From contig JAQTST010000001.1 of NCBI GenBank assembly GCA_028711165.1, positions 232,857 through 296,856 of the forward strand: a DNA stretch of 64,000 nt, in the 5' to 3' direction. The first letter of the stretch is position 1. Every line of letters begins with the position of its first letter. Below the pieces are notes generated by a model that worked only from the letters and a program-made list of their open reading frames with translations, had not been told where the DNA came from and searched no databases. The DNA comes from Candidatus Nanoarchaeia archaeon. Lineage in GTDB: Archaea; Nanobdellota; Nanobdellia; Pacearchaeales; GW2011-AR1. Positions 3,819 through 63,122 of this stretch are shown in pieces. Both the position numbers and the translations under genes were made by a program.

Positions 3819-4118
3819 ATGATTAATTTTATTTATTACCAACACGATGCAACATTTTTTGAGATTTTGATGAAATTATATGGTTCAGATAAGCCAATTC
3901 CTTCCTCTAACCTTGCGGAACAATCGTTAATAGATGGAAAAAATTTATTCGCTTATACCACTTTTTTAATAGAAAGAGGATTAGTTGAAACTCCCCAAAT
4001 TTTTCATACTGGTCATAAGTCTCATCAATTTTTTAGGTTATCTGATTCAGGAAAAAAATTAGTTGAGAAAATTATAAAACAATTTCCTGTAAGGGGAATA
4101 GATTTGGAAAACATTTAA
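3819..4118 (+). CDS. Hypothetical small protein
   Basis: 99-aa ORF, compact spacing, no recognisable motif. Confidence 0.3.
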   Translation: MINFIYYQHDATFFEILMKLYGSDKPIPSSNLAEQSLIDGKNLFAYTTFLIERGLVETPQIFHTGHKSHQFFRLSDSGKKLVEKIIKQFPVRGIDLENI

Positions 4119-4142: not shown

Positions 4143-4685
4143 ATGAACCCGACAAGCAGGACTTTGGAGGAAATCGACGAGGCTCGCGAGAAAGAGGATT
4201 TGAAAAAACTCGAAGCTGTTTTTTTCGTGGCTGCGCGATTTCTCAACATGCAGGAACTTATTTCACTGACAGATTTGAATCCGATAATCCTCGAAGAGCT
4301 TATTGAAAAACTTCAGGACAAATACGAGAGAGAAGATTCTGCGATTGAGATTATCGAGAAAAACAAAATGTGGAAAATGGACGTGAAGCCCGCATACCAT
4401 AATATTATCAACAAACTTGCGGGCGGGAAATCTGAATTCTCGAAGGCAGAACAGGAAACCCTTGCAATAATTGCTTACAAGCAGCCGATAAAACAATCCG
4501 TCATAATAAAAATAAGAGGAAACAAGGCTTACGACCATATCAAAAAATTTGAAGATTTGGAGCTAATCAAAAAGAAAAGAGTCGGGCACACCCACGAACT
4601 TTCAATCAGCGACGACTTTTATGATTATTTTACTTTTCAGGAAAATTCTTCGGGTGGAAATGCACCACAAGAATCTTTAAAATAA
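4143..4685 (+). CDS. scpB: Segregation and condensation protein B (ScpB)
   Basis: LEAVFFVAARFLNMQEL and AEQETLAIIAYKQPIKQSVIIKIRG match the two winged-helix repeats of ScpB. Confidence 0.7.
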   Translation: MNPTSRTLEEIDEAREKEDLKKLEAVFFVAARFLNMQELISLTDLNPIILEELIEKLQDKYEREDSAIEIIEKNKMWKMDVKPAYHNIINKLAGGKSEFSKAEQETLAIIAYKQPIKQSVIIKIRGNKAYDHIKKFEDLELIKKKRVGHTHELSISDDFYDYFTFQENSSGGNAPQESLK

Positions 4686-4815
4686 GAACCACCTGCGGGT
4701 TTCCTAATACCTCCTGCGTCCCAGCAGGAAGCTGAACTAAGAACCCAAGGTTCCTAATACCTCCTATGAATATTTTCGCTGTTAGCGACTGGAATCAATC
4801 CAAGGTTCCTAATAC
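4685..4815. repeat. Three tandemly spaced copies (about 51 and 58 bp apart) of a short motif AAGAACC.AGGTTCCTAATACCTCC(T), plus a GC hairpin CCTGCGTCCCAGCAGG
   Basis: Copies at 4685-4715 (gaaccacctgcgggtttcctaatacctcct), 4736-4766 (ctaagaacccaaggttcctaatacctcct) and 4795-4815 (aatccaaggttcctaatac). The same motif recurs at 25137-25160. Confidence 0.6.
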
Positions 4816-4865
4816 TTTTCTATTATTATAAGAATCTTTAAAAATAACAATCTCGGAATAGTGAA

Positions 4866-8065: not shown

Positions 8066-8147
8066 ACTTTTATAAACTATTTTTCTGAATTCATACTATG
8101 ACAGAACAAAGTTCAGCACAGATACAAAATCAAGGAGATTTTGCATA
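8066..8147 (+). promoter_or_regulatory. rpoL promoter and leader: TATA-like box cttttataaa (8066-8075) followed by a roughly 50-nt leader from about 8098
   Basis: AT-rich TATA-like element about 27 bp upstream of the point where a conserved leader sequence begins. The leader plus gene start is duplicated at 45014-45085. Confidence 0.4.
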
Positions 8148-8411
8148 ATGGAAATTAATGTTCTTAAATCTGAGAAAGACGAGATTGAATTTGAAATTGA
8201 AAGCCTTACTTTAGCAGAGATTTTGAGAGTTTATCTTAACAAAGATTCTGCTGTGACTTTTGCGGCCTGGAAAAGAGAGCATCCTACAAAAAAGCCTATT
8301 ATGTCTGTGAAGACAAAAGGCAAGACAGCAAAGAAAGCAATTGACGACGCTGTTTCTGCAATCACCAAAGATTTGGACAGAGTTGAGAAAGACTTTGACA
8401 AGATATTATAA
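8148..8411 (+). CDS. rpoL: DNA-directed RNA polymerase subunit L (Rpo11)
   Basis: MEINVLKSEKDEIEFEIESLTLAEILRVYLNKDSAVTFAAWKREHP matches the RpoL/Rpb11 fold pattern (NE.EF.L.GEDHTL.N.LR..L..D..V.FA.YK..HP). Confidence 0.75.
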   Translation: MEINVLKSEKDEIEFEIESLTLAEILRVYLNKDSAVTFAAWKREHPTKKPIMSVKTKGKTAKKAIDDAVSAITKDLDRVEKDFDKIL

Positions 8412-16822: not shown

Positions 16823-17020
16823 ATGGTACTCCAGTACAAACTGAAATCTGAAACGAGGTGGAAAAAATATCCCGGGAAATCTAAATTAAAATATTCTGTC
16901 AGTAAATATGATTTTAGATTGTTAAATGAAGCAAAGACTAAAGTTCTGGTTGGGAAAACCAATTATGCAAAGGTTATGAAAAGATTCAGGCAAATTGAAT
17001 TTTTTAAACGAATGCACTAA
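16823..17020 (+). CDS. Possible small basic protein (65 aa)
   Basis: ORF in a 280-bp gap after an AT-rich TATA-like region. Lys-rich. An antisense ORF also exists, so uncertain. Confidence 0.2.
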   Translation: MVLQYKLKSETRWKKYPGKSKLKYSVSKYDFRLLNEAKTKVLVGKTNYAKVMKRFRQIEFFKRMH

Positions 17021-17301
17021 AATTTTCCCTGTTTTCTTTTTTCAAATCTCTTCCAAGCTGCTGCTGCGGATTTCGATCTTCTCTCAAGCCTTCCAAGAAT
17101 TGACTTTCTTATATCTACAGATTTGACAACCTTCTTTTTTCCGAAAAAGTTGACTACTTCATTTCCAACTTCGTTGACAACTTCTTCAGTTTTCCTGGGA
17201 GAAAAACCAGCTTCTTTTACTGCTCCCTTAATTGCTTTTTTTATTTTAGAAGGGCTGAAAGCCTGTTTTCTTTGTCCGCCTCTTTTAATGACGTGTGTCA
17301 T
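17017..17301 (-). CDS. ATP-cone domain protein
   Basis: MTHVIKRGGQRKQAFSPSKIKKAIKGAVKEAG matches the ATP-cone signature (V.KR.G..E.F...KI..AI). Start trimmed to the internal ATG of ORF 17017-17373. Confidence 0.5.
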   Translation of the reverse strand: MTHVIKRGGQRKQAFSPSKIKKAIKGAVKEAGFSPRKTEEVVNEVGNEVVNFFGKKKVVKSVDIRKSILGRLERRSKSAAAAWKRFEKRKQGKF

Positions 17302-17339: not shown

Positions 17340-17572
17340 GAATGGCCCCGAAGTCAAAACGGAATTTTCTCATTCGAGTCCACTCACTCCTTCATGGCCC
17401 CGAATACTCGAGCCCCCACTCGTTGCAACTAAAATTTTTCTGGCACTCGTGAAAACTCTCTACTCCCGACCCCACTCGAAATCACAGAGACAAAATCTCA
17501 CTCGTGAAATCGCTCGGGATTTGTACCTCGATTCAAATCAACATTTAGAAATTGCAATTTTTCAATTGCAAA
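17340..17572. repeat. Composite of family-A repeat modules immediately 3' of tRNA-Lys, punctuated by three direct copies of the tRNA 3' terminus (atggccccgaa)
   Basis: atggccccgaag at 17342-17353, atggccccgaat at 17394-17405 and atggccccgaag at 17572-17583 (tRNA end). Modules between them include actcgagcccccactc, cactcgtgaaaactctc, gagtggggtcgg-type and cactcgtgaaatcgctcgggatttgtacctcg, all shared with other copies. Confidence 0.7.
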
Positions 17573-17684
17573 TGGCCCCGAAGGGATTTGAACCCTCGAC
17601 ACCCAGATTTCTCCCTTATGGTCGGAATCTTCTGTTCCACAATCTTAAGAGTCTGGTGCTCTAACCAGGCTGAGCTACGGAGCC
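17573..17684 (-). tRNA. tRNA-Lys(CTT) with 37-nt intron 3' of anticodon position 37
   Basis: Reverse complement: GGCTCCG-TA-GCTC-AGCCTGGTTA-GAGC-A-CCAGA-CTCTTA[AGATTGTGGAACAGAAGATTCCGACCATAAGGGAGAA]A-TCTGG-GTGTC-GAGGG-TTCAAAT-CCCTT-CGGGGCC-A. All stems pair. Intron is about 17609-17645. Confidence 0.8.
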
Positions 17685-18509: not shown

Positions 18510-18572
18510 TTTGTTATTTTCCTCTTGTATTTCTAACCTTGATTTACCTCGTTTAAAAACTTTTCTTAATTA

Positions 18573-18666
18573 CGAGTGTTCAGTAATCCCACCCCAACTC
18601 GAGCCCCCACTCCTTCTTCACTGACTCTGCCGTCGTGAAAACTCTCGCCCGCCCGAGGGGAAAGTT
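18573..18666. repeat. Family-A repeat copy (inverted-module variant)
   Basis: cgagtgttcagtaatcccaccccaactcgagcccccactc...cgtcgtgaaaactctcgcccgcccgagggg shares modules with 17400-17470 and 49225-49245. Confidence 0.65.
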
Positions 18667-18700
18667 AATTAGTCTTCGCATTCGTAATTTTATAAAAAGA

Positions 18701-19870: not shown

Positions 19871-19987
19871 ATTTACAAAATAAAATGACAACAGATATTT
19901 TTGACAATGGAAACCACCAGCGGGTTTTTCACAAATCCTGCAACCCTGCGACAGGAAATCGCAGAAAAAACAAATCACAAAAATAAA
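19871..19987 (+). pseudogene. Duplicated 5' end of the downstream gene (34-bp direct repeat including ATG) enclosing a roughly 55-bp family-B-like insert
   Basis: aaaataaaatgacaacagatatttttgacaatgg (19871-19904) versus aaaataaaatgacaactgatatttttgataatac (19978-20011). Between them, aaccaccagcgggttt...cctgc...gcag resembles 4687-4735 (aaccacctgcgggttt...cctgcg...cagcagg). Confidence 0.5.
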
Positions 19988-20350
19988 ATGACAACTGATA
20001 TTTTTGATAATACTATATTATGCAGGAAATGCAACACAAAAATGCAGAAAGCAAAAATTGTAAAAAACGGATTTTTATTCAGGGCAATAGTTTGTCCAAA
20101 ATGCAATGAAAAAATAATTCATCCTGCTGACGAACAGGAATATAATAAATTTGTAAATTTGAAAAATAAAGAATTCCATGTGAAGATGAGACTTGTGGGG
20201 AACAGCTACGCTGTTTCAATTCCGAAAGAAATTGTTTCATTCATGAAAGAACAGGAAAAAATAATGGACGACATGGTAAGATTATGTTTTGAGGATATGG
20301 GAAAATTAAGTTTAAATTTTGTTGAAGAAACTAAAAAGTTAGAAAAATAA
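19988..20350 (+). CDS. Zinc-ribbon plus AbrB/MazE/SpoVT-type (swapped-hairpin) DNA-binding protein
   Basis: CRKCNTKM...CPKCNEK ribbon; VKMRLVGNSYAVSIPKEIVSFM matches the SpoVT/AbrB core (K.R.VGNS..VTIPKEI). Start set at the second MTTDIFDN copy. Confidence 0.5.
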   Translation: MTTDIFDNTILCRKCNTKMQKAKIVKNGFLFRAIVCPKCNEKIIHPADEQEYNKFVNLKNKEFHVKMRLVGNSYAVSIPKEIVSFMKEQEKIMDDMVRLCFEDMGKLSLNFVEETKKLEK

Positions 20351-23701: not shown

Positions 23702-24556
23702 TATTGTGTTTTCTGCCTGTGAGACTTTTGCGTGAGAGACTTCAATTAACTGTGGATACTGATGAAGATTTCCATTTTCCTCCAACTGCTTTAATGCAAA
23801 CAGAGATTTTATTCCGAATTTTTTTACGAGCCATCTTGAACAAAAAGGAAGTGTCTGATATTCGTCAGCTATAAAATCCAATATTTCCCTCGCTGTTGGA
23901 TTTCTGACATTCTTGCTGTCTATTAAAATATAAATTCCTGAAGGTTTTCCCTCGTAAATTTTTCCGCTTCCGTTTGTTGCGAAAGGCTCGATTGCATACA
24001 ATCCTTCACTGAGCTTTTCTTTATTTGTTGTTTTAATATTCATAATCGTAAGTCCTGCATGAAGTTCATATTCTTCCATTTCATGTCCTGTCAAATTAAC
24101 AATCGGAGAAAATTTGTATGATTCCATAGTCTCCTGAATTACTTTTCCTATTTCTCCGAGGGAACTTTTTTTCTCTGCTTCTCTGATTGCATTTTTCAGG
24201 GCTTTTTCAGATGCTTCAATTAATTTTTTATTTTCTGAATTATTTTCCAAATCAACTGAAAAAGCTGTGTCAGCAATCCAACCGTCGACGTGAACTCCAA
24301 AATCTACTTTCAGCAAACCGCTTGCTTTTGTCTCGTCATTGTAAGAAGGCGTGTAATGCGCGGCAATTTCATTTATTGAAAGATTTGTCGGGAAAGCAGG
24401 TTTTCCTTTTAGTTCTTTTATTTTATTTTCAATTTTTTCTGCGAGTTCAAGAAGGGGCATTCCTTTTTTTATTTGGGGTTTTATCCATTCTTTGACTTCG
24501 CTGGCAATCTTTCCTGCCTGCAAAATTTTTTCCTTTTGTTTTGATCTTGATGTCAT
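23666..24556 (-). CDS. map: Methionine aminopeptidase, type 2 (archaeal)
   Basis: GKIASEVKEW, AFPTNLSINEIAAHYTP, DFGVHVDGWIADTAFSV and the C-terminal ...HAKVSQAENTILV pita-bread fold motifs. Confidence 0.8.
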   Translation of the reverse strand: MTSRSKQKEKILQAGKIASEVKEWIKPQIKKGMPLLELAEKIENKIKELKGKPAFPTNLSINEIAAHYTPSYNDETKASGLLKVDFGVHVDGWIADTAFSVDLENNSENKKLIEASEKALKNAIREAEKKSSLGEIGKVIQETMESYKFSPIVNLTGHEMEEYELHAGLTIMNIKTTNKEKLSEGLYAIEPFATNGSGKIYEGKPSGIYILIDSKNVRNPTAREILDFIADEYQTLPFCSRWLVKKFGIKSLFALKQLEENGNLHQYPQLIEVSHAKVSQAENTILVDDKIIVTSE

Positions 24557-25119
24557 TCTTCTACCTTAATTTCTTTATATTTTAATCTTCTGCTTTTGGG
24601 TATGAAGTTACTTATTTTCTCTGCTGAGATTTTTCCTGTTCCGAGGAAATCGTTTTTGAACTTCATAATAAAAAATCCTTTTTCTATTTCGATTTCGCTC
24701 GTCGAGCCCACCCTCCCGCCCAACGGGGAATTAATTTGTACTCGCGAAATCTCTCTTGATTTCTTTATATCTTCTAATAACAATTCCTGCCCCATCATCC
24801 ATTGCTCTGCCTGTTTCTCGTCGAGTTCAAAAATATTTTTTGTAATTTGCTCTTTCATCAATTGAACTCCTTCAATACTCAATCTCAAGTCCTGTGTCTT
24901 CTCATCTATCTTTGCAAAATACAATCCAATTCCTTCAATCCTTGCAAACCTGTCTAATCCTAAAATTTCTTTTTCTGAAATATCTCCTGAAAAAACAATT
25001 ATTCTTTCTCTTCCAAGTTTTGCTAAACTGAATGGCACGTCTTTTATTCCAAACTGCTCGTTAAGTTGTTTGATGAATTGTTCTTTTTCATTTTTATTAA
25101 AAAATTTGAGAGGTATCAT
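24553..25119 (-). CDS. Hypothetical protein (possible RNA-binding/PUA-like) carrying an in-frame family-A repeat insertion
   Basis: Coding strand contains INSPLGGRVGSTSEIEIE, encoded exactly by repeat copy 24694-24752. The ORF-track N-terminus (to 25194) is encoded by repeat C, so the start is probably the internal Met (MIPLKFF). Confidence 0.4.
   Translation of the reverse strand: MIPLKFFNKNEKEQFIKQLNEQFGIKDVPFSLAKLGRERIIVFSGDISEKEILGLDRFARIEGIGLYFAKIDEKTQDLRLSIEGVQLMKEQITKNIFELDEKQAEQWMMGQELLLEDIKKSREISRVQINSPLGGRVGSTSEIEIEKGFFIMKFKNDFLGTGKISAEKISNFIPKSRRLKYKEIKVEE
24694..24752. repeat. Family-A repeat copy, in frame inside a minus-strand CDS
   Basis: gatttcgctcgtcgagcccaccctcccgcccaacggggaattaatttgtactcgcgaaatctc. 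Confidence 0.8.
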
Positions 25120-25124
25120 TGCGC

Positions 25125-25200
25125 AGACACTAAGAACCGAGGTTCCTAATACCTCCGATTGTCTTCTTAATCTTCCCACTAAATTTGTGCTCATGGCTGA
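25125..25200. repeat. Repeat C (includes family-B motif): GCGCRGACAC...AGGTTCCTAATACCTCC...CTTAATCTTCCC....AATTTGTG.TCA.G.CTGATTA
   Basis: gcgcagacactaagaaccgaggttcctaatacctccgattgtcttcttaatcttcccactaaatttgtgctcatggctgatta. Second copy at 45709-45776. Confidence 0.7.
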
Positions 25201-31046: not shown

Positions 31047-31892
31047 ATGAATGTAAAATCTTTTGATGTCCTCGGGAATATTGCAATTGTAAGATTCCCT
31101 GAGAAATTTAGTCCCGGAAACAAGAAAAAATTTGCCGAGAAAATTCTGAAGGAAAATAAAGGAATAAGAACGATTCTCGAGAAAAGGGAAAAAATTAAAG
31201 GAAGACTTAGAAAATTGTCGACGAATTTTATTGCAGGGGAAAACACAAAGGAAGTTTTGTATCGGGAAAATGATTGTGTTTTCAGATTTAATGTTGATGA
31301 AACTTATTTTTCCCCGAGGCTGAGCAATGAGCGAAAAGAGATTGCTGATAAAATCAAGAAGAATGAAACTGTCTTGGTGATGTTTGCAGGAGTCGCTCCT
31401 TTTTCGATTGTGATTGCAAAGAAATCAAAAGCAAAAAAAGTTTATTCAAACGAAATAAACCGCGAGGCGAACAAATATGCTGAGATGAATATCAAAATGA
31501 ATAAGCTGAAAGACAAGGTTATAATTGTTCCTGGCGATGCGAAAAAAATTCATGAGAAATTTGCAACTTCGTTCGCCAAGCCCACCCGCCCGCCCAAGGG
31601 GGAACAAATTAGTACTCGCGAAGTTGTTCCTTCTAAATTTGATGTCATTGTTATGCCCCGCCCGCAACTGAAAGATACTTTTCTGAAAGAAGCATTTGTT
31701 TTATCAAAAAAAGGAACCAGAATTTATTATTATGATTTCTGCAAGGTTGAAGATATTGATTTTGTCGTCGAGAAAATAAAAAACGAGGCAGAGAAATCAA
31801 AAAAGAAAATAAAGATTTTGAATGTGAAACGGGCAGGGGAAATTGCTCCTTACAAAACTAGATTGAGGGTTGATTTTGTGGTTTTGAATTAA
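31047..31892 (+). CDS. trm5: tRNA (guanine37-N1)-methyltransferase Trm5/Taw2 family, with in-frame family-A repeat insertion
   Basis: FDVLGNIAIV, FSPRLSNER, VLVMFAGVAPFSIV and DVIVMPRP motifs. The inserted peptide FAKPTRPPKGEQISTREV is encoded by the repeat at 31569-31626. Confidence 0.7.
   Translation: MNVKSFDVLGNIAIVRFPEKFSPGNKKKFAEKILKENKGIRTILEKREKIKGRLRKLSTNFIAGENTKEVLYRENDCVFRFNVDETYFSPRLSNERKEIADKIKKNETVLVMFAGVAPFSIVIAKKSKAKKVYSNEINREANKYAEMNIKMNKLKDKVIIVPGDAKKIHEKFATSFAKPTRPPKGEQISTREVVPSKFDVIVMPRPQLKDTFLKEAFVLSKKGTRIYYYDFCKVEDIDFVVEKIKNEAEKSKKKIKILNVKRAGEIAPYKTRLRVDFVVLN
31569..31626. repeat. Family-A repeat copy, in frame inside trm5
   Basis: cgttcgccaagcccacccgcccgcccaagggggaacaaattagtactcgcgaagttg. 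Confidence 0.8.
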
Positions 31893-33802: not shown

Positions 33803-33830
33803 TTTACTTGTTAATCCTCTAGAAATTTTG

Positions 33831-33885
33831 TTCGGTAAGCCCATCCTTCCGCCCAAGCGGAAATTAAGTTAGTCCTCACAAAATT
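33831..33885. repeat. Family-A repeat copy spanning the rfcL 5' region and the 3' end of the upstream 119-aa ORF
   Basis: ttcggtaagcccatccttccgcccaagcggaaattaagttagtcctcacaaaattt. Confidence 0.7.
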
Positions 33886-34228
33886 TTTCCTCCTTTCTTA
33901 TCGGTTCACAACCGTTAAAGTAAATTTCATTCGGTTCAATTTTTTTAATTATCTTGTATAATCCTTTAGTCCATACTTCTTCACCAAAAATAAAATGAGT
34001 GTACTCAGTTATTATTATGCTTGCAAGAGGATCTGATAACTTCTGATTTCCTTCTGTCTTTACTAATGGAATCTCCCCCCTTAAATAATAAATTCTTTGC
34101 CCTTTTTTTAAAAAATTATATTCTTTTCCTGTTTCTAATTCTTCGGGGAGACATTCTTCTAACTTTCTGTCTAATGTTCCAAATTTCCTTAACGCTAAAT
34201 CCGGATTAAATTCAACCTGAATTCCCAT
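33869..34228 (-). CDS. Hypothetical protein located between the two RFC subunit genes
   Basis: 119 aa. The last 5 codons (KFCED-stop) lie inside the repeat. Confidence 0.4.
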   Translation of the reverse strand: MGIQVEFNPDLALRKFGTLDRKLEECLPEELETGKEYNFLKKGQRIYYLRGEIPLVKTEGNQKLSDPLASIIITEYTHFIFGEEVWTKGLYKIIKKIEPNEIYFNGCEPIRKEEKFCED

Positions 34229-37519: not shown

Positions 37520-38560
37520 TTATAAAATTTTCAGAACTTTTTCAACAGCCATTTTCTCTTCGTTGGTTTTTCTAACGAAAACTTTTACTCTTGATTTTTT
37601 TGAAGAAATAATCTCTGAACTTAATTTATTTTTTTCTCTGTCCATTTCAACCCCAAAAAATGAAAGATGACGGCAAACATCTTCTCTTAACTTTTGGACA
37701 TTTTCTCCTATCTTCGCTGTGAAAATCAGATTGTCTAAACCGTTCAGAGCAGCAATATATGAGCCAATTATTTTTGTAATCTGATAAATCAGCATATCAT
37801 AAGCAAGCCTGCAATTTTTATTCTTGTTCATCCTCGACAAAATGTCTCTGAAATCGCTGAATCCTGTGAGTCCTTTTAATCCTGATTTTTCTGTCAGCAA
37901 TTCCTGAACATTATATCCTTTTTTTTCAAGGAAGAAAATTATTCCGGGGTCTATTGTTCCTGAACGCGTTCCCATAATTAATCCTTCTGACGGCGTGAAT
38001 CCCATTGTCGTGTCGATTGGTTTTTTATTGAGAATTGCAGATATGCTTGAACCAGAACCCAGATGGCAGGTTATTGTTTTTCCTTTCAAATCTCTTGAAA
38101 CATATTCGTGAGAAAGTCCGTGAAATCCGTATCTCTGTATTTCATATTTTTTTGTTATTTCTTTTGGAATTGCATAAATTTTTGCAGCGTCGGGAATTTC
38201 TGAAAAAAACATCGTGTCGAAAACCGCGTACTGCGGTTTTTTATATTTTTCACAAAGTTCAATTACCATTAATTGTCGAGGATTATGCAGAGGAGCAAAT
38301 TCTGAGAATTCTTTTATTTTCTTTTTTGTTTCTTCGTTTATCTTCGACGGTTTTTTTAAATCACCACCATGGACTACTCTGTGTGCAATAACATCTATTC
38401 CGTCTCCGTTGATTTTTTTGAAAATTTTTTCTACAGTTCTGCTGTAATCTTCTTTTGTTTTCAGCCTCTCAAAATTTTCTGAATCTTTCAAATCTAAATC
38501 TTCGAACAGACTATATTTTATGCTCGAACTTCCGACATTAAACACCAGAATTTTTTTCAT
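37520..38560 (-). CDS. ackA: Acetate kinase
   Basis: KILVFNVGSSSIKYSLFE (N-terminal ASKHA motif) and VIAHRVVHGGD. 346 aa is somewhat short. Confidence 0.75.
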   Translation of the reverse strand: MKKILVFNVGSSSIKYSLFEDLDLKDSENFERLKTKEDYSRTVEKIFKKINGDGIDVIAHRVVHGGDLKKPSKINEETKKKIKEFSEFAPLHNPRQLMVIELCEKYKKPQYAVFDTMFFSEIPDAAKIYAIPKEITKKYEIQRYGFHGLSHEYVSRDLKGKTITCHLGSGSSISAILNKKPIDTTMGFTPSEGLIMGTRSGTIDPGIIFFLEKKGYNVQELLTEKSGLKGLTGFSDFRDILSRMNKNKNCRLAYDMLIYQITKIIGSYIAALNGLDNLIFTAKIGENVQKLREDVCRHLSFFGVEMDREKNKLSSEIISSKKSRVKVFVRKTNEEKMAVEKVLKIL

Positions 38561-38655
38561 TTTAATTCTATAATAAAGGAACTTGAGATTTTAAATTTTT
38601 AGAATAGGCAAATCTTTTAAATGAAGACGAATTGTAGATTTTGTTTGATAGAAAC

Positions 38656-38708
38656 GCCCCTGTAGTCTAAGCGTCACACAGGAATGTTCGACATAGACTT
38701 TTGGGGCA
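38656..38708 (+). pseudogene. tRNA-Glu-derived pseudo-fragment (first 14 nt and acceptor 3' end of the downstream tRNA flanking a palindromic core)
   Basis: GCCCCTGTAGTCTA...TAGACTTTTGGGGCA. The first 14 nt are identical to tRNA-Glu 5' end. Too short (53 nt) to be a tRNA. Confidence 0.4.
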
Positions 38709-38718
38709 GGAAGAATAA

Positions 38719-38944
38719 GCCCCTGTAGTCTAGAGGCCAAGGACACCACCCTCTCAAAACGCGGAAAGCGGTTTGAATGAAGATTAAAAATCTGATTTCA
38801 AAGTTATAAGAGAGGTGATCAAATCTCGATGAGAGTGGAGATCTAGCATCTCAATGCAATCTCTCGTAGAGAATAACTTCAATCGCGGACAAAATCCGCA
38901 ATTAGGGTACGGTGGTAACCCGAGTTCAAATCTCGGCGGGGGCA
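38719..38944 (+). tRNA. tRNA-Glu(CTC) interrupted by a roughly 153-nt intron (38758-38910), apparently at position 38/39
   Basis: 5' exon GCCCCTG-TA-GTCT-AGAGGCCAA-GGAC-A-CCACC-CTCTCAA; 3' exon GGTGG-TAAC-CCGAG-TTCAAAT-CTCGG-CGGGGGC-A. Acceptor, D, anticodon and T stems all pair across the two exons. Confidence 0.65.
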
Positions 38945-39171
38945 TATTATTTGAACGAGGGGAACCCGATTCAAATCCGAGAGTTTTCACGTGGGCAAGG
39001 AAAAATTTTGTTCGCTGACTTTTTAAAAAACAATTTCGTTCGTCAATCCCGCCCACCCACCCGTTTGGGAAAAATTTGTACTCACGAAATTGTTTTGTTC
39101 CATTAGAAAAAATTAGTTCTCGCAAAATTTTTGGGAGAATGAGTGGGGGCTCGAGTTAGGCGGGGGCATCC
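38945..39171. repeat. Family-A repeat copies 3' of tRNA-Glu, bounded by a direct duplication of the tRNA 3' terminus (ggcgggggcat at 38935-38945 and 39159-39169)
   Basis: cgttcgtcaatcccgcccacccacccgtttgggaaaaatttgtactcacgaaattg (39036-39092) and aattagttctcgcaaaattttt...gagtgggggctcgag. Also a T-arm-like fragment cccgattcaaatccgag. Confidence 0.7.
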
Positions 39172-39245
39172 TAATTTGTAAACAAATTCCAGCAAGCTGT
39201 CGGATGCGCGACGATTTTTTCCAAAAATCTTCGGGAGCATAATAA

Positions 39246-39770
39246 TTATTTTTTCTTTTTTCTAGAACTACCTTCTTCTGTTCTACGAAGCTTGTGGAGT
39301 TCCCATGTAATAAGAATCCCAACAATAAAAACTGCAGCAGTAAGAAGAATCAAGTAATTTCTTATCTGCCCGATTTCAGAACTTTTAACGCGGAACATAG
39401 AAGTTGCTGTCTTATTGCTGTTTATATTTACAACCAAATCATAAACCCCAGGCAAAGTTTCTTCAGGGACTTGTATAGTAGACAAAAAAGATGCTTGTGT
39501 TTCTACTGCCTTAATTTCTTTCTTATAATTAATAATTATATCTCCTTTCTTTATGTAATATTCTAAACTAATATCTTTTCTTCCTGCTTCTGCAATATTT
39601 TCAATTTGAATCTGAAAATTAAGAGTATCCCCTGCTGTAACTGTCTGGTATTTATCTGGAATTGTTATTGATACATCTAATGCTTGAACAAAAAACATCC
39701 CCAATATTATCCCAAATACCATTGAAAAAGTTAAAAGAAAAATAATCTTTGCCATTGTTTTATTATCCAT
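39246..39770 (-). CDS. Type I membrane surface protein with CARDB/Ig-like extracellular domain
   Basis: N-terminal signal-anchor; ITIPDKYQTVTAGDTLNFQIQIENIAEAGRKDISLEYY...GVYDLVVNINSN beta-sandwich pattern; C-terminal TM plus RKKKK. Confidence 0.45.
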   Translation of the reverse strand: MDNKTMAKIIFLLTFSMVFGIILGMFFVQALDVSITIPDKYQTVTAGDTLNFQIQIENIAEAGRKDISLEYYIKKGDIIINYKKEIKAVETQASFLSTIQVPEETLPGVYDLVVNINSNKTATSMFRVKSSEIGQIRNYLILLTAAVFIVGILITWELHKLRRTEEGSSRKKKK

Positions 39771-40266
39771 TTTTTTTATTTTTAATCATAGAATTTATTA
39801 CTATAAAAAAGACTATCATACTCGGGACAGTTAAGGTTAATCCTTTTATTAATTCAAGATAAAAATTATGAATAAAATAACTGACAATTTTTTCAATTAA
39901 AAACAAAATTGCAAAACCCCCCGCAGCTATATAAAGTTTATATCCTTTGGATTCAATTTTACCCCTGAAATAAATCAAATCAACTGCCCACATAATTACT
40001 ACACCGATTACTATTACAATATTTAAATAATAAGTGTCTGAAAGAAATCTTTCTGCAAAATGGATTTCTTTATGCCCGATATAGTAAAGAGAGGCAACAA
40101 CACTCCAACTAAGAGTAAAAAAAGTTAATCTTGTGAAATTTCCGTATATAATCTTTTTTGTTCTCCATCCAACGAATTCAATCCCGATGGATAATAAATT
40201 AAATATAACACTTATGAATACCGCACTTAATGAAAGAGATAATATTAACACCACATCTTCTGTCAT
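39763..40266 (-). CDS. Polytopic membrane protein (about 5 TM)
   Basis: Hydrophobicity only. Overlapping start and stop with neighbours suggests operon membership. Confidence 0.4.
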   Translation of the reverse strand: MTEDVVLILSLSLSAVFISVIFNLLSIGIEFVGWRTKKIIYGNFTRLTFFTLSWSVVASLYYIGHKEIHFAERFLSDTYYLNIVIVIGVVIMWAVDLIYFRGKIESKGYKLYIAAGGFAILFLIEKIVSYFIHNFYLELIKGLTLTVPSMIVFFIVINSMIKNKKNG

Positions 40267-40520
40267 TTCCCCTTTCCTCTTGCTAAGACAATTAAGACAG
40301 TAAGTATCGCAACGATGTATTCAATTTCTATAATTAACCAAGGAAGAGATAGATATATTTCATGTAATGCAAATGCGCTATCAAGACTTATAGCAATCCC
40401 AGCGATAAAAAACGGTATAAACTTTAAAATTCGTTTCTCTTCAATCATTGCAAAAGCAGTTTTCCACAATATAACTGTCGCAGCTATTAATTCAATTAAA
40501 ACATAAATCAAAATATTCAT
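40263..40520 (-). CDS. Small membrane protein (2-3 TM)
   Basis: Hydrophobicity only. Confidence 0.35.
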   Translation of the reverse strand: MNILIYVLIELIAATVILWKTAFAMIEEKRILKFIPFFIAGIAISLDSAFALHEIYLSLPWLIIEIEYIVAILTVLIVLARGKGK

Positions 40521-40903
40521 TTTGTATTCCTCCTAAACCCATATAGCAAACATAAAAAACCGACAAATTTGAAGAATACAATTATTGCCCAATATAAGAA
40601 ATCTAATGCAACTCCTGTCATTGCTTGATATTCCTGCATTGGAATTTCTGCAAGTTTTGTAATAGCTAAAATTATAGCCCCTGTCATAAAATATCTTTTT
40701 GTAATTTTATCTTCTATCTTAAATGAAAAACATAGCACAAATAAAGAAATTAACGCAAAAATCATATCCGGGATGTCATCAAATAATTTGGCATTCTGCC
40801 ATCCCCGGAAAAAAGAAGTCACAACAAAGAAATATGCCAGGATTAAAATTATTGATATTCCCATCCTAACCAAGCATCTACTACTAAATTTTATTTTTTT
40901 CAT
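40517..40903 (-). CDS. Membrane protein (4 TM)
   Basis: Hydrophobicity only. Confidence 0.35.
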   Translation of the reverse strand: MKKIKFSSRCLVRMGISIILILAYFFVVTSFFRGWQNAKLFDDIPDMIFALISLFVLCFSFKIEDKITKRYFMTGAIILAITKLAEIPMQEYQAMTGVALDFLYWAIIVFFKFVGFLCLLYGFRRNTK

Positions 40904-42057
40904 TCTCCTAATAAACTATTAAACCAACTTTTTAATATGTATAACCATCCTGTTTTTATTTTAAACTTTCCTTCAAATTGTTCTACTATTCCTGCATATT
41001 CAACATTTAATTTAAGTGTGTACTCTCCATCATCTAATTTTAAATTTGAAAATTGTTTTATTATTGACTGGTCTGTGTAAACTCTTATTTCTTCAGTTTC
41101 TTCATATTTTTTATTTCCGTCGCTGTCATAAACACTGTAATCTAATCGTGCAGGGACATATCTTTTCCCAAAATTCTGCAGAGTAATCCAAACGGCTAAT
41201 CTATCTGCTACACTTAATGAATTATCTTCTATGTCGAATGTAATATCAAATAATTGTTCGGGTATTGCTTCTTCTGGAGCAGGAGATTCTTCTGGTGGTG
41301 CTTCTGAAGGGATTTCTGCTGGTGTCTCGGTAGGAGTAGTAGGCTCTTCGGCAGGGGGAACTTCTTCAGGCACAATTACTGGTGATTCAATTTCTTCTTT
41401 TGCTTCTTCTATCTCTTCTTGAAAAGGATTTTCAGCAGAACAACTTTGTTCTTCAATTTCTTTAAATTCGCTACAACCTTCATTTACTCCGAAGCAATCT
41501 CTAGTTTGGAGATTATTAATACAATCCCCCCATGCACCGCATTGCCTTGAAACAGTACAAGTTGCTAAATCTTGATGGGCTTGTCCAGATGCTGCACTAT
41601 CTTTTTTTGCTTTTTCGACATTCATACAATTATCTTCCTGAGTTAGATTAGTCCTGCTGCAATCTTCATTTATAACTGTGCATACTCTTGTTTGTTTGTC
41701 ATTACTGCAACTGCTCCATTCTCCACAGGTTTTTTGGACAGAACATAACGCTCCTTTTTCTTCTTCAAACTTTAATACTTTCCATGTTTCTCCGTCGTAA
41801 AATCTTAATTTTTTAGAAACAGAATCTAAATAAATCATTCCAAAAACTGGAAGAACAGGTTCTGTACTTGGGGATAACAAAAGGAAATTCTTGATTGTGA
41901 TCTGCGGTGTTTTTATTTTTAATTCGGATTCATAAAATGGATTTCCATTTTCATCTTCGTTATAACTAAGAGAACTAGCACAGATTATTAAATTTAAAAC
42001 TAATAAAATTCCAATTCCCAGAATTATTTGCTTTTTCATTTTAGTTATAATAACCAA
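40900..42057 (-). CDS. Secreted protein with two Cys-rich repeats, acidic Pro/Glu/Thr linker and C-terminal beta domain
   Basis: Signal peptide; repeats CGEWSSCSNDKQTRVCTVINEDCS and CGAWGDCINNLQTRDCFGVNEGCS; linker PEEVPPAEEPTTPTETPAEIPSEAPPEESPAPEEAIPEQ. Confidence 0.5.
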   Translation of the reverse strand: MVIITKMKKQIILGIGILLVLNLIICASSLSYNEDENGNPFYESELKIKTPQITIKNFLLLSPSTEPVLPVFGMIYLDSVSKKLRFYDGETWKVLKFEEEKGALCSVQKTCGEWSSCSNDKQTRVCTVINEDCSRTNLTQEDNCMNVEKAKKDSAASGQAHQDLATCTVSRQCGAWGDCINNLQTRDCFGVNEGCSEFKEIEEQSCSAENPFQEEIEEAKEEIESPVIVPEEVPPAEEPTTPTETPAEIPSEAPPEESPAPEEAIPEQLFDITFDIEDNSLSVADRLAVWITLQNFGKRYVPARLDYSVYDSDGNKKYEETEEIRVYTDQSIIKQFSNLKLDDGEYTLKLNVEYAGIVEQFEGKFKIKTGWLYILKSWFNSLLGE

Positions 42058-43345
42058 TTACTGTCACTGACAAATCTGTAACTCTCTGGCTCCCTCCAGT
42101 TCCTGAATATTTAAGAACCATTAAATCCCCCTGGCTAAAATTTACATTAAAATTTAACACAGAACCTTTTGTAACTCCTTGCATGTTTACAAATGCATTT
42201 GTGTCAATAAAACTTGTTTTACTAGAAGTGCTTTTCATTAAAGTAACTTTTGAAATATCTGTTCCATCGATAGATGCTGCATTCCATAAAATTCCAGTAA
42301 CTGTCAGATTTTTATCCACTATTGTAGAAGCCGGGCTTGCAGTTATTTTTGCTGTTCCTCCTATTGAGAATGGCAGATATGAAGTTGATACAATTAAAAT
42401 TCCATCACTTGTCGACGAGAATCTTACCGGAATTTTCATATTTCCACCCGAAAGGCAATTTGTTCCGTCTGCTAAACAAACTAATTTATTGTTAGAATAA
42501 ATATTTCCTGTAACATTAATTCCGTTTTCGTCTATAATCATCCTTTCTATCATTGTATTACTTCCTCTCGCAGTTGTTTTGAATTGTATTTTTTTCCCTT
42601 GAGAATTGCCAATCCAATTTTCAGTAGCCAATATTCTTATATCCCCCTGCCCAATTCCCCCGAGAGAAAACCCGTTTGTTCCATATCCTCTTGTAGAAAT
42701 ATACCCAATAGTATCTCCTGCCAAAATTGGTTGCGGATTTGCTAAAGTTCCTCTAGCTTTTCTTAAAATAATTCCTGAACCAACTACTGTGTCATATGTA
42801 TAAGCATCTATCATTGTTCCTATATTAACAGTAGAATTTGTTTCCTGAATTATATGCAGAAATGCTAAGGGAGTTGTTTGCAATCCTATTCCAACTTTAG
42901 AAGCCTGGATTATAATCGGCACGTCATTTGTAATTAATGGAACTTTAATTTCACTTTCTACTTTTATACTCCCTGTTGTTGTTTCATTAATATCTTTTCT
43001 TAAATAATCGAAATGAGTTAATCTCCTTCTTGGAGATTGAATAGTTCCGTCAATAGAAATTTCAACAAAATAATCTTTTGTTGTGTCGCTGCAGATACTA
43101 GAAAGTCCTGTTAATTCTGTTTTCCATTGCCCCCAATATCCCGTTGAGATATTTTTTGTATAAGAACCTAATAAATTTCCACTGGTTTCAGCGTCGTAAA
43201 TATCAAATTTAAAAGTGAATGTTCCCTGTTGGAATTGTGTCCCCTTATAATATTGCCCCTGGAAAACTGAAACATCACTTGAGGCACAAATAAAATTTAT
43301 AAAAATAATTAATATTACTACACCTAAAAGAAATTTTGAATTCAT
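42041..43345 (-). CDS. Large secreted beta-rich protein (adhesin or fibre-like)
   Basis: Signal peptide; Gly/Thr/Ser/Asn-rich with no Cys clusters; segments such as ERMIIDENGINVTGNIY recall fibre and appendage proteins. No confident family. Confidence 0.4.
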   Translation of the reverse strand: MNSKFLLGVVILIIFINFICASSDVSVFQGQYYKGTQFQQGTFTFKFDIYDAETSGNLLGSYTKNISTGYWGQWKTELTGLSSICSDTTKDYFVEISIDGTIQSPRRRLTHFDYLRKDINETTTGSIKVESEIKVPLITNDVPIIIQASKVGIGLQTTPLAFLHIIQETNSTVNIGTMIDAYTYDTVVGSGIILRKARGTLANPQPILAGDTIGYISTRGYGTNGFSLGGIGQGDIRILATENWIGNSQGKKIQFKTTARGSNTMIERMIIDENGINVTGNIYSNNKLVCLADGTNCLSGGNMKIPVRFSSTSDGILIVSTSYLPFSIGGTAKITASPASTIVDKNLTVTGILWNAASIDGTDISKVTLMKSTSSKTSFIDTNAFVNMQGVTKGSVLNFNVNFSQGDLMVLKYSGTGGSQRVTDLSVTVIGYYN

Positions 43346-43989
43346 TGCCTCCCCCTTTTTATTTTGAGCACTTTCTTCTTTTTAATCCTTACTTTTTTTT
43401 GTTTTCTTTTTGTCCAAAAGAATATTTTTATAAAAATATATACAAACAGCGAAAGAACTAATATCCCTGCAATAATTGCAATTGGTAAAATTAAATTTCT
43501 ATTTCTTCCAAGAACAAGTCCTGCAAAAAGTGGCAGAAACCTTTCACAAATATCCTCATAATTATTAACATACTCTTCTGTTTTGCTGTCTGAAAAATTT
43601 ATTATATTTTTTTGATTAATCTGGGCGGTAAGTTCTTGAATCTCTTCAGATGTATAATTTCTTGTCTGTTGAGTTTTTATGTGATTTACCAGCGACTGAA
43701 AAATTATGTCACAAACCTGTTGTTTATTTGATTCTTCTGCAGTATCTTCAGAAATACAAACCCCGCAATCAATTGAACAACTATCACAGGTTTCTCCAGA
43801 ATCACAAAAATCATTTCCACAATAAATTGCCCTTCCTCCCCCAGATGGACTTGCTTGAGCGATTTCTTCCGATGACATTATAAATTCATCATTATATCCC
43901 AGTTCACCTTCAAAAAAAGTTGTTTCTGCCAAACATAGACTAGAAAAAAATAATGCGAATAAAATTACAATTAAAACTTTTTTTACCAT
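43342..43989 (-). CDS. Cys-rich surface protein with C-terminal TM anchor and polybasic tail
   Basis: Signal peptide; YCGNDFCDSGETCDSCSIDCGVC Cys knot-like motif; TM LILPIAIIAGILVLSLFVYIFI followed by KRKQKKVRIKKKK. Confidence 0.45.
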   Translation of the reverse strand: MVKKVLIVILFALFFSSLCLAETTFFEGELGYNDEFIMSSEEIAQASPSGGGRAIYCGNDFCDSGETCDSCSIDCGVCISEDTAEESNKQQVCDIIFQSLVNHIKTQQTRNYTSEEIQELTAQINQKNIINFSDSKTEEYVNNYEDICERFLPLFAGLVLGRNRNLILPIAIIAGILVLSLFVYIFIKIFFWTKRKQKKVRIKKKKVLKIKRGRQ

Positions 43990-44081
43990 ACAGCCTCTTT
44001 CTAAATCGAAGGTAATAAGAATTATAAACTTTCTGGAACAATAACTTTTAATACCTATACGATACTATTTTAACATCTAAA

Positions 44082-44154
44082 AGCCCCATAGTACAGCGGT
44101 CAAGTATATCGGCCTCTGGAGCCGGTGACCCAGGTTCGAATCCTGGTGGGGCTA
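44082..44154 (+). tRNA. tRNA-Gln(CTG)
   Basis: AGCCCCA-TA-GTAC-AGCGGTCAA-GTAT-A-TCGGC-CTCTGGA-GCCGG-TGAC-CCAGG-TTCGAAT-CCTGG-TGGGGCT-A. All stems pair. Confidence 0.8.
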
Positions 44155-44268
44155 TTTCTTTTATGGGGATGAGAACCTGAAGGTTCGACGAGCGATTTCA
44201 CGAGTGCCGAAAAATATTTTAATGCAACGAGTGGGGTCGCGAGCACTGATGGGGCTATTTCTTTTATC
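44155..44268. repeat. Roughly 85-bp family-A-related insert immediately 3' of tRNA-Gln, flanked by 18-bp direct repeats of the tRNA 3' end
   Basis: TGGGGCTATTTCTTTTAT at 44148-44165 and 44251-44268. The insert contains cggcactcgtgaaatcgctcgtcgaacc (rc) and gagtggggtcgcgag, which match modules at 17497-17515 and 17461-17480. Confidence 0.7.
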
Positions 44269-44304
44269 AGAAATATTTTTATACATCATTATTCTAATTA
44301 AATC

Positions 44305-44622
44305 ATGGAGATGTTAATGATTTTTTTTGTGATTGCAATTCTTATAGTTACTATGTGGGTGATGTTCAAATTCAGGGGATTTCAGCAAAAATTTTTAACT
44401 GTTTTTTTAATAGTCTTAATTTTATTTTCTTTTTTTAGTTTTTATCTTGCGTTCAACGGGAAAAATATTACTATAAAAAGTGTCAGTGATGTTGAGAAAC
44501 TTGGAAAACTTTATTTTTCGTGGCTTGGAAATGTTTTTAATAACATAAAAATTTTGACAACTCAGGCGATAAAAATGCGCTGGGAAGGAAACAGAACAAT
44601 AAAATCGATAAGGTTAACATAA
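44305..44622 (+). CDS. Small membrane protein
   Basis: Two TM helices at the N-terminus. Confidence 0.3.
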   Translation: MEMLMIFFVIAILIVTMWVMFKFRGFQQKFLTVFLIVLILFSFFSFYLAFNGKNITIKSVSDVEKLGKLYFSWLGNVFNNIKILTTQAIKMRWEGNRTIKSIRLT

Positions 44623-44653
44623 TATTTATAAAGCATAAGTTCCAATATATATT

Positions 44654-44944
44654 ATGACAAGAAAAAAGGGGATGAAGAAAACAGCGAGGAGAAATTTGAG
44701 AAAAAAGGGTTCTAAATACATGCAAGCGGGCGGTTTGCAGAACAAAATAAAACTTGTTATCAATAATCTTTTATTATTTGTAGCATTATCTCTCATATCA
44801 TTTGTGTTGTACAGATTTATTGAAAATAGTTTTTTGAATGATTTGTTTTTTATCATTGCAATAGTTTTTGGTTTTATTGGAGTTGGATTTTTGATAGTTC
44901 TTTTAATCTTGATGATTATGAATTTGATGTCTAAGAGAAGATAA
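44654..44944 (+). CDS. Small membrane protein with basic N-terminus
   Basis: KKGMKKTARRNLRKKG then two TM helices. Confidence 0.3.
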   Translation: MTRKKGMKKTARRNLRKKGSKYMQAGGLQNKIKLVINNLLLFVALSLISFVLYRFIENSFLNDLFFIIAIVFGFIGVGFLIVLLILMIMNLMSKRR

Positions 44945-44975
44945 TTTTTTATATACTAATTCTAAATAAATTTAT

Positions 44976-44994
44976 GCCTGCGTAGCTCACTGGG
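44976..44994 (+). pseudogene. Orphan tRNA 5' fragment (acceptor plus D-arm start)
   Basis: GCCTGCGTAGCTCACTGGG versus the tRNA-Thr 5' end GCCTGCGTAGCTCAGTCGG (16 of 19 identical). Not followed by a tRNA body. Confidence 0.5.
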
Positions 44995-45013
44995 TTTCTT
45001 AGAAAGAAACTAC

Positions 45014-45085
45014 AATGACAGAGCAAAGCTCAGCACAAATACAAAACGAGTTTTGCATAATGGTAGAAATGCTTAAAATGCATTC
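45014..45085 (+). repeat. Degenerate copy of the rpoL leader plus first codons
   Basis: atgacagagcaaagctcagcacaaatacaaaacgagttttgcataatggtagaaatgcttaaaat versus 8098-8170 atgacagaacaaagttcagcacagatacaaaatcaaggagattttgcataatggaaattaatgttcttaaat. Confidence 0.6.
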
Positions 45086-45102
45086 ATTCGCTACATATTA
45101 AA

Positions 45103-45176
45103 GCCTGCGTAGCTCAGTCGGTTAGAGCGCGACATTGGTAATGTCGAGGTCCTGAGTTCAACTCTCAGCACAGGCT
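45103..45176 (+). tRNA. tRNA-Thr(GGT)
   Basis: GCCTGCG-TA-GCTC-AGTCGGTTA-GAGC-G-CGACA-TTGGTAA-TGTCG-AGGTC-CTGAG-TTCAACT-CTCAG-CACAGGC-T. One acceptor mismatch (C6/A67). Confidence 0.75.
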
Positions 45177-45224
45177 TGGTAGTCCTTGAAATAAATTTAT
45201 AAACCTCTTCATCAGACTTCTGAT

Positions 45225-49146: not shown

Positions 49147-49162
49147 TTTATTTCTTCCAAAC

Positions 49163-49276
49163 TTCGCTCGTCAATCCCACCCAACTCAAGCCCTCACTCA
49201 TTGCTATTAATTTCTGCTGGCATTCGTGAAAACTCTCGCCCACCCAATGCGGAAAAAATTTGTACTCGCGAAATTT
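49163..49276. repeat. Family-A repeat, longest composite copy (intergenic between pheT and pheS)
   Basis: acttcgctcgtcaatcccacccaactcaagccctcactcattgctattaatttctgctggcattcgtgaaaactctcgcccacccaatgcggaaaaaatttgtactcgcgaaattt. Confidence 0.8.
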
Positions 49277-63121: not shown

Positions 63122-63122
63122 C

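Follow-up and report, generated by a model that had tools for sequence, protein, structure and literature searches.

Short structured inserts flanked by duplicated tRNA termini in a Pacearchaeota-like archaeal genome

The 64-kb stretch of DNA analysed here (the window; GC content ~34%) belongs to a Pacearchaeota-like DPANN metagenome-assembled genome (MAG), tiny though of at least 0.45 Mb, whose nearest genomes are Candidatus Pacearchaeota MAGs. It carries archaeal housekeeping genes, including those for TFS, Cdc48, PolB, RFC and RNase P p30, and tRNA genes whose ends have been duplicated around short inserts. These insertions at tRNA ends are real and recent, and tRNA ends are strongly preferred. 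tRNA genes were sought with Rfam 15 covariance models and with ARAGORN, by default or with introns allowed (-i), and membership of two repeat families, M3 and S, was scored with covariance models built for each family. The window was compared with related loci (L003, L126, L127, L128, L130, L132, L133, L134 and L136), L127 being the closest relative (acetate kinase 87% identical), and with an independent Logan assembly (L002). The tRNA-Lys locus, where two inserts are stacked, is organised as follows.

17573-17684, minus strand: tRNA-Lys(CUU), with a 37-nt intron at 17608-17644 (Rfam tRNA 55.9 bits; ARAGORN -i)
17572-17583, minus strand: Lys copy 1, CTTCGGGGCCAT in tRNA sense, the true T-stem end, acceptor 3' strand and discriminator plus one base
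17406-17571, minus strand: LysB, younger insert of 166 nt, missing from the orthologous L003 site
17394-17405, minus strand: Lys copy 2, aTTCGGGGCCAT, 11 of 12 bases
17354-17393, minus strand: LysA, older insert of 40 nt, not M3, ~80% identical to its L003 counterpart
17341-17353, minus strand: Lys copy 3, CTTCGGGGCCATT, matching copy 1 at 13 of 13 bases and lying close upstream of the ATP-cone gene's TATA box
17017-17301, minus strand: ATP-cone gene

The motif ATGGCCCCGAA(G/T) occurs exactly three times in the window, the last occurrence being the 3' end of the intron-containing tRNA-Lys(CUU), in line with the positions given by the initial annotation. When one mismatch at most is allowed, ATGGCCCCGAAK matches solely at 17342, 17394 and 17572, for a shuffle mean of 0.27 and three matches in 1 of 100 shuffles, and copies 1 and 3 have a 13-mer in common (17341/17571). 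The tRNA itself is missed by default ARAGORN because of its 37-nt intron, and is called once introns are allowed. The initial annotation made its case depend on the duplicated sequences holding up on re-sequencing; in L002, the Lys locus, all three copies included, is 100% identical to the window, and the triplication is not an assembly artefact.

In tRNA sense, LysB is composed of an 8-bp hairpin followed by TTTC (17552-17571), a T-arm-like piece (17516-17539) and two tandem M3 modules (17465-17513 and 17402-17464), which score 36.8 and 77.6 bits with the M3 covariance model. Modules of one repeat family had initially been placed in both Lys intervals; this holds for the 166-nt interval, with its two M3 modules, and not for the 40-nt one (LysA, 17354-17393), which does not match the M3 model (E=2.2). 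A likeness of LysA to the tRNA-Lys intron (p=0.04) was taken as chance. In L003, an intron-less tRNA-Lys (3832-3906) is followed by just a 41-42-nt unit and one extra TTCGGGGCCAT, the whole spacer being ~85% identical to that of the window. As its tRNA-Lys has this older unit alone, L003 is an empty site for the 166-nt LysB, and since LysA is common to both, LysA predates the split from L003. LysB was inserted later than LysA at the same place, next to the tRNA, and tRNA-Lys was hit twice. The tRNA-Lys intron was gained or lost recently, since it measures 37 nt in the window and is absent from such a close relative. In the two relatives of the ATP-cone region (L134 and L136), no tRNA-Lys was found beside the ATP-cone gene.

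Comparable arrangements are found at the three other tRNA genes, all on the plus strand:

44082-44154, plus strand: tRNA-Gln(CUG) (Rfam, ARAGORN)
44147-44267, plus strand: tRNA-Gln 18-nt direct repeat TGGGGCTATTTCTTTTAT at 44147-44164 and 44250-44267, with an 85-nt insert between
38719-38944, plus strand: tRNA-Glu(CUC), with a 153-nt intron at the canonical position and exon 2 at 38909-38944 (ARAGORN -i, manual parsing)
38946-39158, plus strand: tRNA-Glu 3' insert of 213 nt, absent in L127, one-module version in L128
39159-39169, plus strand: distal copy of the tRNA-Glu 3' end, GGCGGGGGCAT (proximal copy 38935-38945), then the ancestral flank
38656-38718, plus strand: at the tRNA-Glu 5' end, distal copy of tRNA positions 1-14 (38656-38669; tRNA copy 38719-38732) and a 49-nt insert; empty in L127
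45103-45176, plus strand: tRNA-Thr(GGU) (Rfam, ARAGORN)
44976-45102, plus strand: at the tRNA-Thr 5' end, distal copy of tRNA positions 1-14 (44976-44989; tRNA copy 45103-45116) and a 113-nt insert; empty in L126

The tRNA-Gln repeat corresponds to the last 8 nt of the tRNA and 10 nt of flank, and its insert contains one M3 (44186-44248). The 18-bp repeat and 85-bp insert announced there are exact, with coordinates to be moved by one base (44147/44250, not 44148/44251). The tRNA-Glu repeat had been correctly located at 38935 and 39159. Within the 213 nt that it encloses, the 3' exon of the same tRNA is imperfectly repeated, as far as the T loop only (38949-38978), and is followed by an M3 (38979-39155) whose loop holds a nested S element in the opposite orientation (39027-39096). 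tRNA-Glu(CUC) is not called by Rfam, even at E<=10, and is also missed by default ARAGORN.

The initial count of three affected tRNAs out of four is right for the 3' ends (Lys, Gln and Glu), but is too narrow, as tRNA-Thr and tRNA-Glu carry 14-nt duplications at their 5' ends. Both consist of exactly tRNA positions 1-14. Because a TATA-like box or promoter lies upstream of the distal 5' copy at both genes, these two tRNAs would have to be made with long leaders and to depend on RNase P. The RNase P p30 subunit gene is at 50950-51402. The Thr 5' insert includes a paralogous copy (45015-45063) of a mini-ORF/leader (MTEQSSAQIQN...) overlapping the start of the rpoL-like gene (8098-8151), ~90% identical over the best-matching 32 nt; DNA from another locus served as filler here. 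CTCAGCACA, within this insert, was considered as a tRNA-Thr 3' fragment and rejected, as it is part of the copied mini-ORF.

The comparison of tRNA loci with those of relatives, which had been proposed as a check, reveals empty sites in L127, L126 and L003. In L127, the promoter region lies directly before tRNA-Glu and the flank that follows the window's second 3' copy directly after it (91% identical), making this locus an empty site for both the 5' and the 3' Glu inserts. tRNA-Thr of L126 has no 5' insert. L128 possesses a one-module Glu 3' insert followed by a decayed copy, CGGCGGGaCAT, and plain tRNA-Thr, tRNA-Glu and tRNA-Gln genes are found in more distant relatives. Since relatives show empty sites, these are true insertions that duplicated the tRNA terminus as their target.

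Short-range direct repeats were compared with those of composition-preserving (block) shuffles of the window. Those of at least 11 nt with a GC fraction of at least 0.5 number 9, versus 0.19 in the shuffles, and all short-range direct repeats together number 70, versus 17.4 expected. According to the initial annotation, tRNA targeting would fall if equivalent repeats were as frequent beside other loci. A similar layout does exist at protein-gene ends, in three cases. At a GC cut-off of at least 0.55, 6/8 of the repeats are located at tRNA termini.

Two of the three protein-gene cases involve another repeat family, family B (AACCACCWGCGGGTTT; GGTTCCTAATAC three times), present at 4669-4843 and 19877-20012. 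A 14-nt repeat (4669/4830) at the stop codon of the ScpB gene encloses a 147-nt family-B insert, and a ~33-nt repeat (19877/19980) at the start of the gene 19988-20350, start codon included, encloses another family-B piece. In the third case, the 21-nt repeat TTTGAAGAAGAAAAATGACAA (7597-7617/7769-7789) spans a stop/start junction and flanks a 172-nt unit encoding a small zinc-ribbon protein, which looks like another duplication-flanked insertion.

The initial annotation attributed the duplicated tRNA ends to an integrase. As in an att footprint, direct repeats containing part of a tRNA gene, its 3' end, do flank inserted DNA, and the second Glu and Lys copies may reach back to the 3' exon start, the typical extent of an att identity block. 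Furthermore, in L133 a 407-aa Phage_integrase gene lies directly 3' of tRNA-Gln (L133 4315-5698). This suggests a classical integrated element, and the integrase mechanism therefore exists in the lineage, though it looks different from the window loci; no second tRNA-Gln-end copy was found within 21 kb of the L133 integrase. In the window and a 10-kb extension, however, Pfam scans and precomputed Pfam labels reveal no tyrosine or serine recombinase, transposase, Cas1 or reverse transcriptase among ~60 proteins. The targets comprise five different cores, the 3' ends of tRNA-Lys, tRNA-Glu and tRNA-Gln and the 5' ends of tRNA-Glu and tRNA-Thr, with duplications of 11-13 (Lys), 11 (Glu 3'), 18 (Gln) and 14 nt (5' ends). 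A site-specific integrase would have to work with a separate core at each of the four tRNAs affected, whether at 3' or 5' ends, and no common sequence was found at the junctions next to the duplicated cores, where a one-core-per-integrase rule would have conserved adjoining sequence.

The inserts themselves argue in the same direction. They measure 40-213 nt without common arm sequences, and their DNA belongs to dispersed hairpin families with further members between genes and, in frame, within them. The putative att block is perfect over its terminal 11-18 nt and degenerate elsewhere, the unrelated LysA and LysB re-used one site, and analogous events affect protein-gene ends. Integrase mediation is therefore poorly supported: att footprints of a tyrosine integrase, left either by mini-elements mobilised in trans or by larger elements since deleted, whose displaced tRNA 3' halves were then colonised by M3, are a very unlikely source of these loci.

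The 14-nt duplications bring to mind another enzyme, a casposase-like solo Cas1 that would integrate in trans at tRNA ends with a ~14-nt duplication and tandem re-use of the target. Three duplications are of exactly 14 nt (Glu 5', Thr 5' and 4669/4830), Lys reaching 13/14, and known casposons duplicate 14 bp at the tRNA-Leu 3' end and form tandem arrays sharing a duplication (PMC4779613). Such an origin is nevertheless highly improbable for the present inserts, given the absence of cas1 from the window and of terminal inverted repeats, the other duplication lengths (11, 18, 21 and ~33 nt) and targets without a common motif.

M3 is a discrete unit of ~55-60 nt, with constant boundaries in every copy. 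It comprises a 10-bp stem with 3-4 conserved U·G pairs, formed on the G-rich strand only, and two compensated pairs, GAG boxes flanking the stem and an AT-rich loop; a K-turn or bulge-helix-bulge reading of these boxes was dropped, as the geometry fits neither. The window contains 6 copies: two in tandem at Lys, one at Glu, one at Gln and two nested in S. Every non-nested M3 is located at a tRNA 3' end, with its G-rich strand as the tRNA sense strand (three window loci and L128), and at every tRNA locus its right-hand end lies 1-6 nt from the distal tRNA copy. With ~70 intergenic regions and four tRNA 3' flanks, we estimate at ~2e-4 the chance that three independent M3 loci all fall on tRNA 3' flanks. 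The possibility that M3 targets any G-run was rejected, as runs of 4 G or more number 186 in the window.

The 3' inserts share one layout which, in tRNA sense, reads: intact tRNA, 10-40 nt of AT-rich DNA (at Lys, the perfect 8-bp hairpin), a T-arm-like piece, M3, 1-6 nt, and a perfect copy of the acceptor 3' strand with the original flank. The piece between the proximal tRNA copy and M3 resembles, but for 1-nt deletions, the 3' exon or T arm of the tRNA beside it (p<0.003 for Lys and Glu, p ~0.05 for Gln). These pieces also resemble each other across tRNAs, and that of Lys forms the outer stem of the first M3 (M3a). The left arms of the 3' inserts may be plain decayed copies of a longer duplication, though they resemble one another as well as the neighbouring tRNA.

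The second family, S, is ~60-66 nt long with a 9-bp terminal stem, 5-6 of the 9 pairs showing compensatory changes among only six copies. In its G-rich centre lie the window's only three canonical G-quadruplex motifs, G3N1G3N1G3N1G3 (24707-24721, 31581-31595 and 39048-39062, minus strand). Seven copies are present in the window and one in the 10-kb extension; outside the tRNA loci, they are arranged as follows.

49159-49276, minus strand: S with nested M3 (49180-49241), between two PheRS subunit genes; reference copy for both families
18570-18700, minus strand: S-like element with nested M3 (18593-18650), between the TFS gene and the next gene
31564-31626, minus strand: S inside the Trm5/Taw2 gene (31047-31892, plus strand), adding 22 in-frame codons
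24690-24752, minus strand: S inside a PUA-domain gene (24553-25194, minus strand), adding ~24-27 in-frame codons
10338-10398, minus strand: S, intergenic
33823-33886, minus strand: S between two co-directional genes

In both nested cases (49180-49241 and 18593-18650), M3 sits exactly between the second and third G-tract of S. All eight S copies (10338-49276 in the window, L129 20068-20129) have their G-rich strand on the minus strand whatever the local gene orientation, and S is thus antisense in the Trm5 gene. This uniformity suggests strand-specific, replication-linked insertion, as for single-strand transposons. Exactly the 22 codons contributed by S to the Trm5/Taw2 gene are missing from its 83%-identical ortholog in L126, and the 24-27 codons of the PUA-domain gene are missing from most homologs. 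In one distant homolog (P0164), a comparable Gly-rich stretch (SGRVGG) is inserted at the same position. A PDB sequence search with the PUA-domain protein gave nothing informative.

The M3 and S covariance models match this genome and L128 only, without any match in ~130 kb from nine other related loci, and this restriction points to recent proliferation. A metagenome scan with the 16-mer AATTTGTACTCGCGAA returned 120 loci, all of them chance matches in unrelated high-GC DNA, and at E<=1-10 the inserts have no credible Rfam 15 match, the tRNAs alone passing.

The place and strand of M3 could also mean that it works as RNA. M3 and the distal acceptor-strand copy would then belong to the tRNA 3' trailer and be kept by selection, their role being to terminate transcription, to assist processing or stability, or to act as a decoy for the acceptor 5' strand. 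The shared orientation of M3 and tRNA, U·G pairs effective solely in the G-rich strand, which is the transcribed one, M3 loops containing T-runs and a distal Lys copy still perfect in two species would all be expected of such an RNA. Its presence nevertheless varies among close relatives, the distal Glu copy has decayed in L128, and Rfam gives no match. Moreover, LysA does not stand out by its conservation, since window and L003 agree at ~85% over the entire intergenic region. We regard a selected RNA function as hardly probable at all.

Any explanation has to account for the insertion events observed, with their duplications, recurrence, orientation, family structure and lineage restriction. 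The one that we tentatively put forward, as a possibility that may well prove right or wrong, is that small, non-autonomous, structured, GC-rich elements (mainly M3) are inserted by a target-duplicating process that favours tRNA boundaries and a fixed orientation. The tRNA gene would be opened with a stagger at its extreme 3' boundary (or, for tRNA-Glu and tRNA-Thr, at the extreme 5' boundary), the element would be joined in tRNA orientation, and gap fill-in would leave 11-18 nt of the tRNA end on either side. The copy beside the tRNA body would complete an intact gene, the distal copy being a by-product. Re-use of the same site would stack units with the younger insert nearest to the tRNA, hence the three copies at tRNA-Lys. 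The elements are non-autonomous, and the inserter would act in trans and would not be a site-specific tyrosine integrase. In such a compact genome, purifying selection could remove the insertions that do not regenerate a complete gene end, and this survivorship filter would sharpen the terminal clustering. Staggered break, fill-in, trans-acting enzyme and filter are all inferred.

Several observations weigh against this insertion of mobile elements. No mobilising enzyme was found, the DNA covered being 64 kb (plus 10 kb) out of at least 0.45 Mb of genome. The tRNA inserts have neither terminal inverted repeats nor a conserved left junction, the duplication length (11-18 nt at tRNAs, up to 21-33 nt elsewhere) is unlike that of most transposases, and M3 nested in S shows no long duplication. 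The 5' inserts and LysA belong to neither repeat family, and one of them contains DNA copied from elsewhere, so that the duplication process seems independent of the inserted content. Finally, a one-step cut and fill fails to explain the imperfect T-arm/3'-exon copies between the proximal tRNA copy and M3.

Part of these difficulties would disappear if the inserts resulted from template switching during replication or repair, of the kind termed MMBIR or FoSTeS, without any dedicated mobile-element enzyme. Replication forks would be halted by tRNA genes, structured and highly transcribed, and by repeats forming hairpins or G-quadruplexes, and the nascent strand would copy M3, family B or the rpoL leader; part of the tRNA would be re-copied with errors, and a return upstream of the exit point would leave a duplication flanking a composite insert. 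Such switching is better at explaining the variable duplication lengths (11-33 nt), the mixed inserts, with their ~90% identical (best 32 nt) copy of an unrelated locus, and the presence, inside the 3' inserts, of imperfect T-arm copies of the same tRNA, marked by 1-nt deletions. It also agrees with insert termini that are not conserved and with the general excess of short-range direct repeats (70 vs 17.4). It is worse at explaining why M3 is complete, with the same boundaries in all copies, which it does not predict, why M3 keeps a strict niche at tRNA 3' ends in a fixed orientation, and why both 5' duplications are exactly positions 1-14; nor is there obvious microhomology at the junctions. 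We consider template switching the main rival, though on the whole somewhat unlikely, and we keep target-duplicating insertion of structured elements as our working explanation.

The loci could represent a previously undescribed tRNA-end insertion system of DPANN archaea, blind to tRNA identity, with elements below 250 bp, a fixed orientation and an 11-18-nt duplication, and distinct from tyrosine-integrase att recombination; a new system in this full sense is distinctly unlikely. Candidates for it could be: (i) a solo Cas1-like integrase acting on mini-substrates, or (ii) an RNA-mediated route via tRNA exons or trailers.

The order and orientation of tRNA-Gln, tRNA-Glu, tRNA-Thr and their neighbour genes (window 38560-45200) vary in nearly every relative (L126, L127, L128, L130, L132 and L133), and the tRNA genes appear to sit at rearrangement breakpoints. 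The promoter stretch GAAATATTTTTATACATC is found 3' of tRNA-Gln in the window but 3' of tRNA-Glu in L128. A homolog search with the 215-aa neighbour of tRNA-Gln gave one distant match only. In L127, tRNA-Gln(CUG) (L127 1-119), which ARAGORN mislabels as tRNA-Pyl, has a 45-nt intron containing TTCACGAG, the M3 signature octamer.

Introns of 100-156 nt are found at the canonical position of tRNA-Glu(CUC) in L126 (7854-8084), L127 (243-424), L128 (4345-4542), L132 (9248-9442) and L133 (6103-6298) as well. Their core, GAGAGGTGATCAAATCTCGATGAGAG...GCATCTCAATGCAATCTCTC, is kept across relatives and has C/D-box-like motifs. By analogy with the Haloferax tRNA-Trp intron, a case of intron-encoded guide sRNA, the tRNA-Glu intron may encode a guide sRNA. 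A type II toxin-antitoxin pair seems to be encoded at 62873-63253 (gene called as L129 9388-9874), where a ParE-family toxin gene has a small partner upstream.

The genomes of DPANN archaea are very small, and selfish DNA is usually considered scarce in them; a literature search found no paper on such repeats in Pacearchaeota or other DPANN archaea. In the present Pacearchaeota-like genome, two families of structured GC-rich repeats have recently expanded: one enters protein genes in frame, and the other, placed almost exclusively at tRNA 3' ends, leaves the tRNA terminus duplicated in stacks. Enzymatic targeting would make this a compact insertion system able to use tRNA genes of any sequence; if the targeting reflects replication conflicts, the loci would be a natural record of template switching at archaeal tRNA genes. 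In either case, duplicated tRNA ends should not automatically be taken as integrase footprints when MAGs are annotated.

Among known systems, elements inserted by tyrosine integrases (attL/attR) are similar in that direct repeats with the tRNA 3' end flank the insert and the tRNA stays intact. They differ from the present loci, where no integrase was found, inserts are non-coding and of 40-213 nt, several unrelated tRNAs are affected, 5' ends included, repeats vary and protein genes are also concerned. The behaviour of S is reminiscent of the Rickettsia palindromic elements (RPE), reportedly described by Ogata et al. in 2000: both are short palindromic repeats of an AT-rich reduced genome, found in intergenic DNA and in frame in genes. 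In the Trm5/Taw2 and PUA-domain genes alike, S is an in-frame palindromic repeat absent from orthologs, as an RPE would be. RPE belong to another domain of life and have no sequence relation with S, and they are not known for long tRNA-end duplications.

Miniature inverted-repeat transposable elements (MITE) and the REP-BIME and PATE hairpin repeats are likewise small, non-autonomous, structured and multi-copy. S and M3 are, like MITE, non-coding, multi-copy and below 300 bp. They do not show the combination of inverted repeats, fixed duplication and related autonomous insertion sequence (IS): the S termini do pair, but neither S nor M3 has a fixed short duplication, M3 at tRNA sites has no inverted termini, and no parent IS or RAYT gene was seen. 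The pairing termini of S and its uniform strand orientation are as expected for single-strand mobilisation of the HUH/RAYT type.

Casposons are Cas1/casposase transposons that make 14-bp duplications, use the tRNA-Leu 3' end and form tandem arrays (PMC4779613, PMC5137440). They are kilobase-sized, with Cas1, PolB and terminal inverted repeats, unlike the tiny inserts described here, which lack inverted repeats and a visible cas1. The duplications of the known tRNA-targeting casposon families are constant (14-15 bp), whereas here three exact 14-mers stand beside duplications of 11, 13, 18, 21 and ~33 nt. What the two have in common is a ~14-nt target-site duplication, integration at a tRNA 3' end and the tandem re-use of one target with shared duplications. 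The GC clusters of yeast mitochondria, whose mobilising mechanism is unknown, differ in having flanking repeats of just 2-3 nt (AG or ACT) and no tRNA-end niche (PMC4478555). They nonetheless resemble the present families as GC-rich hairpins of a very AT-rich genome, with structure-preserving substitutions and with merging and nesting of copies (PMC4478555).

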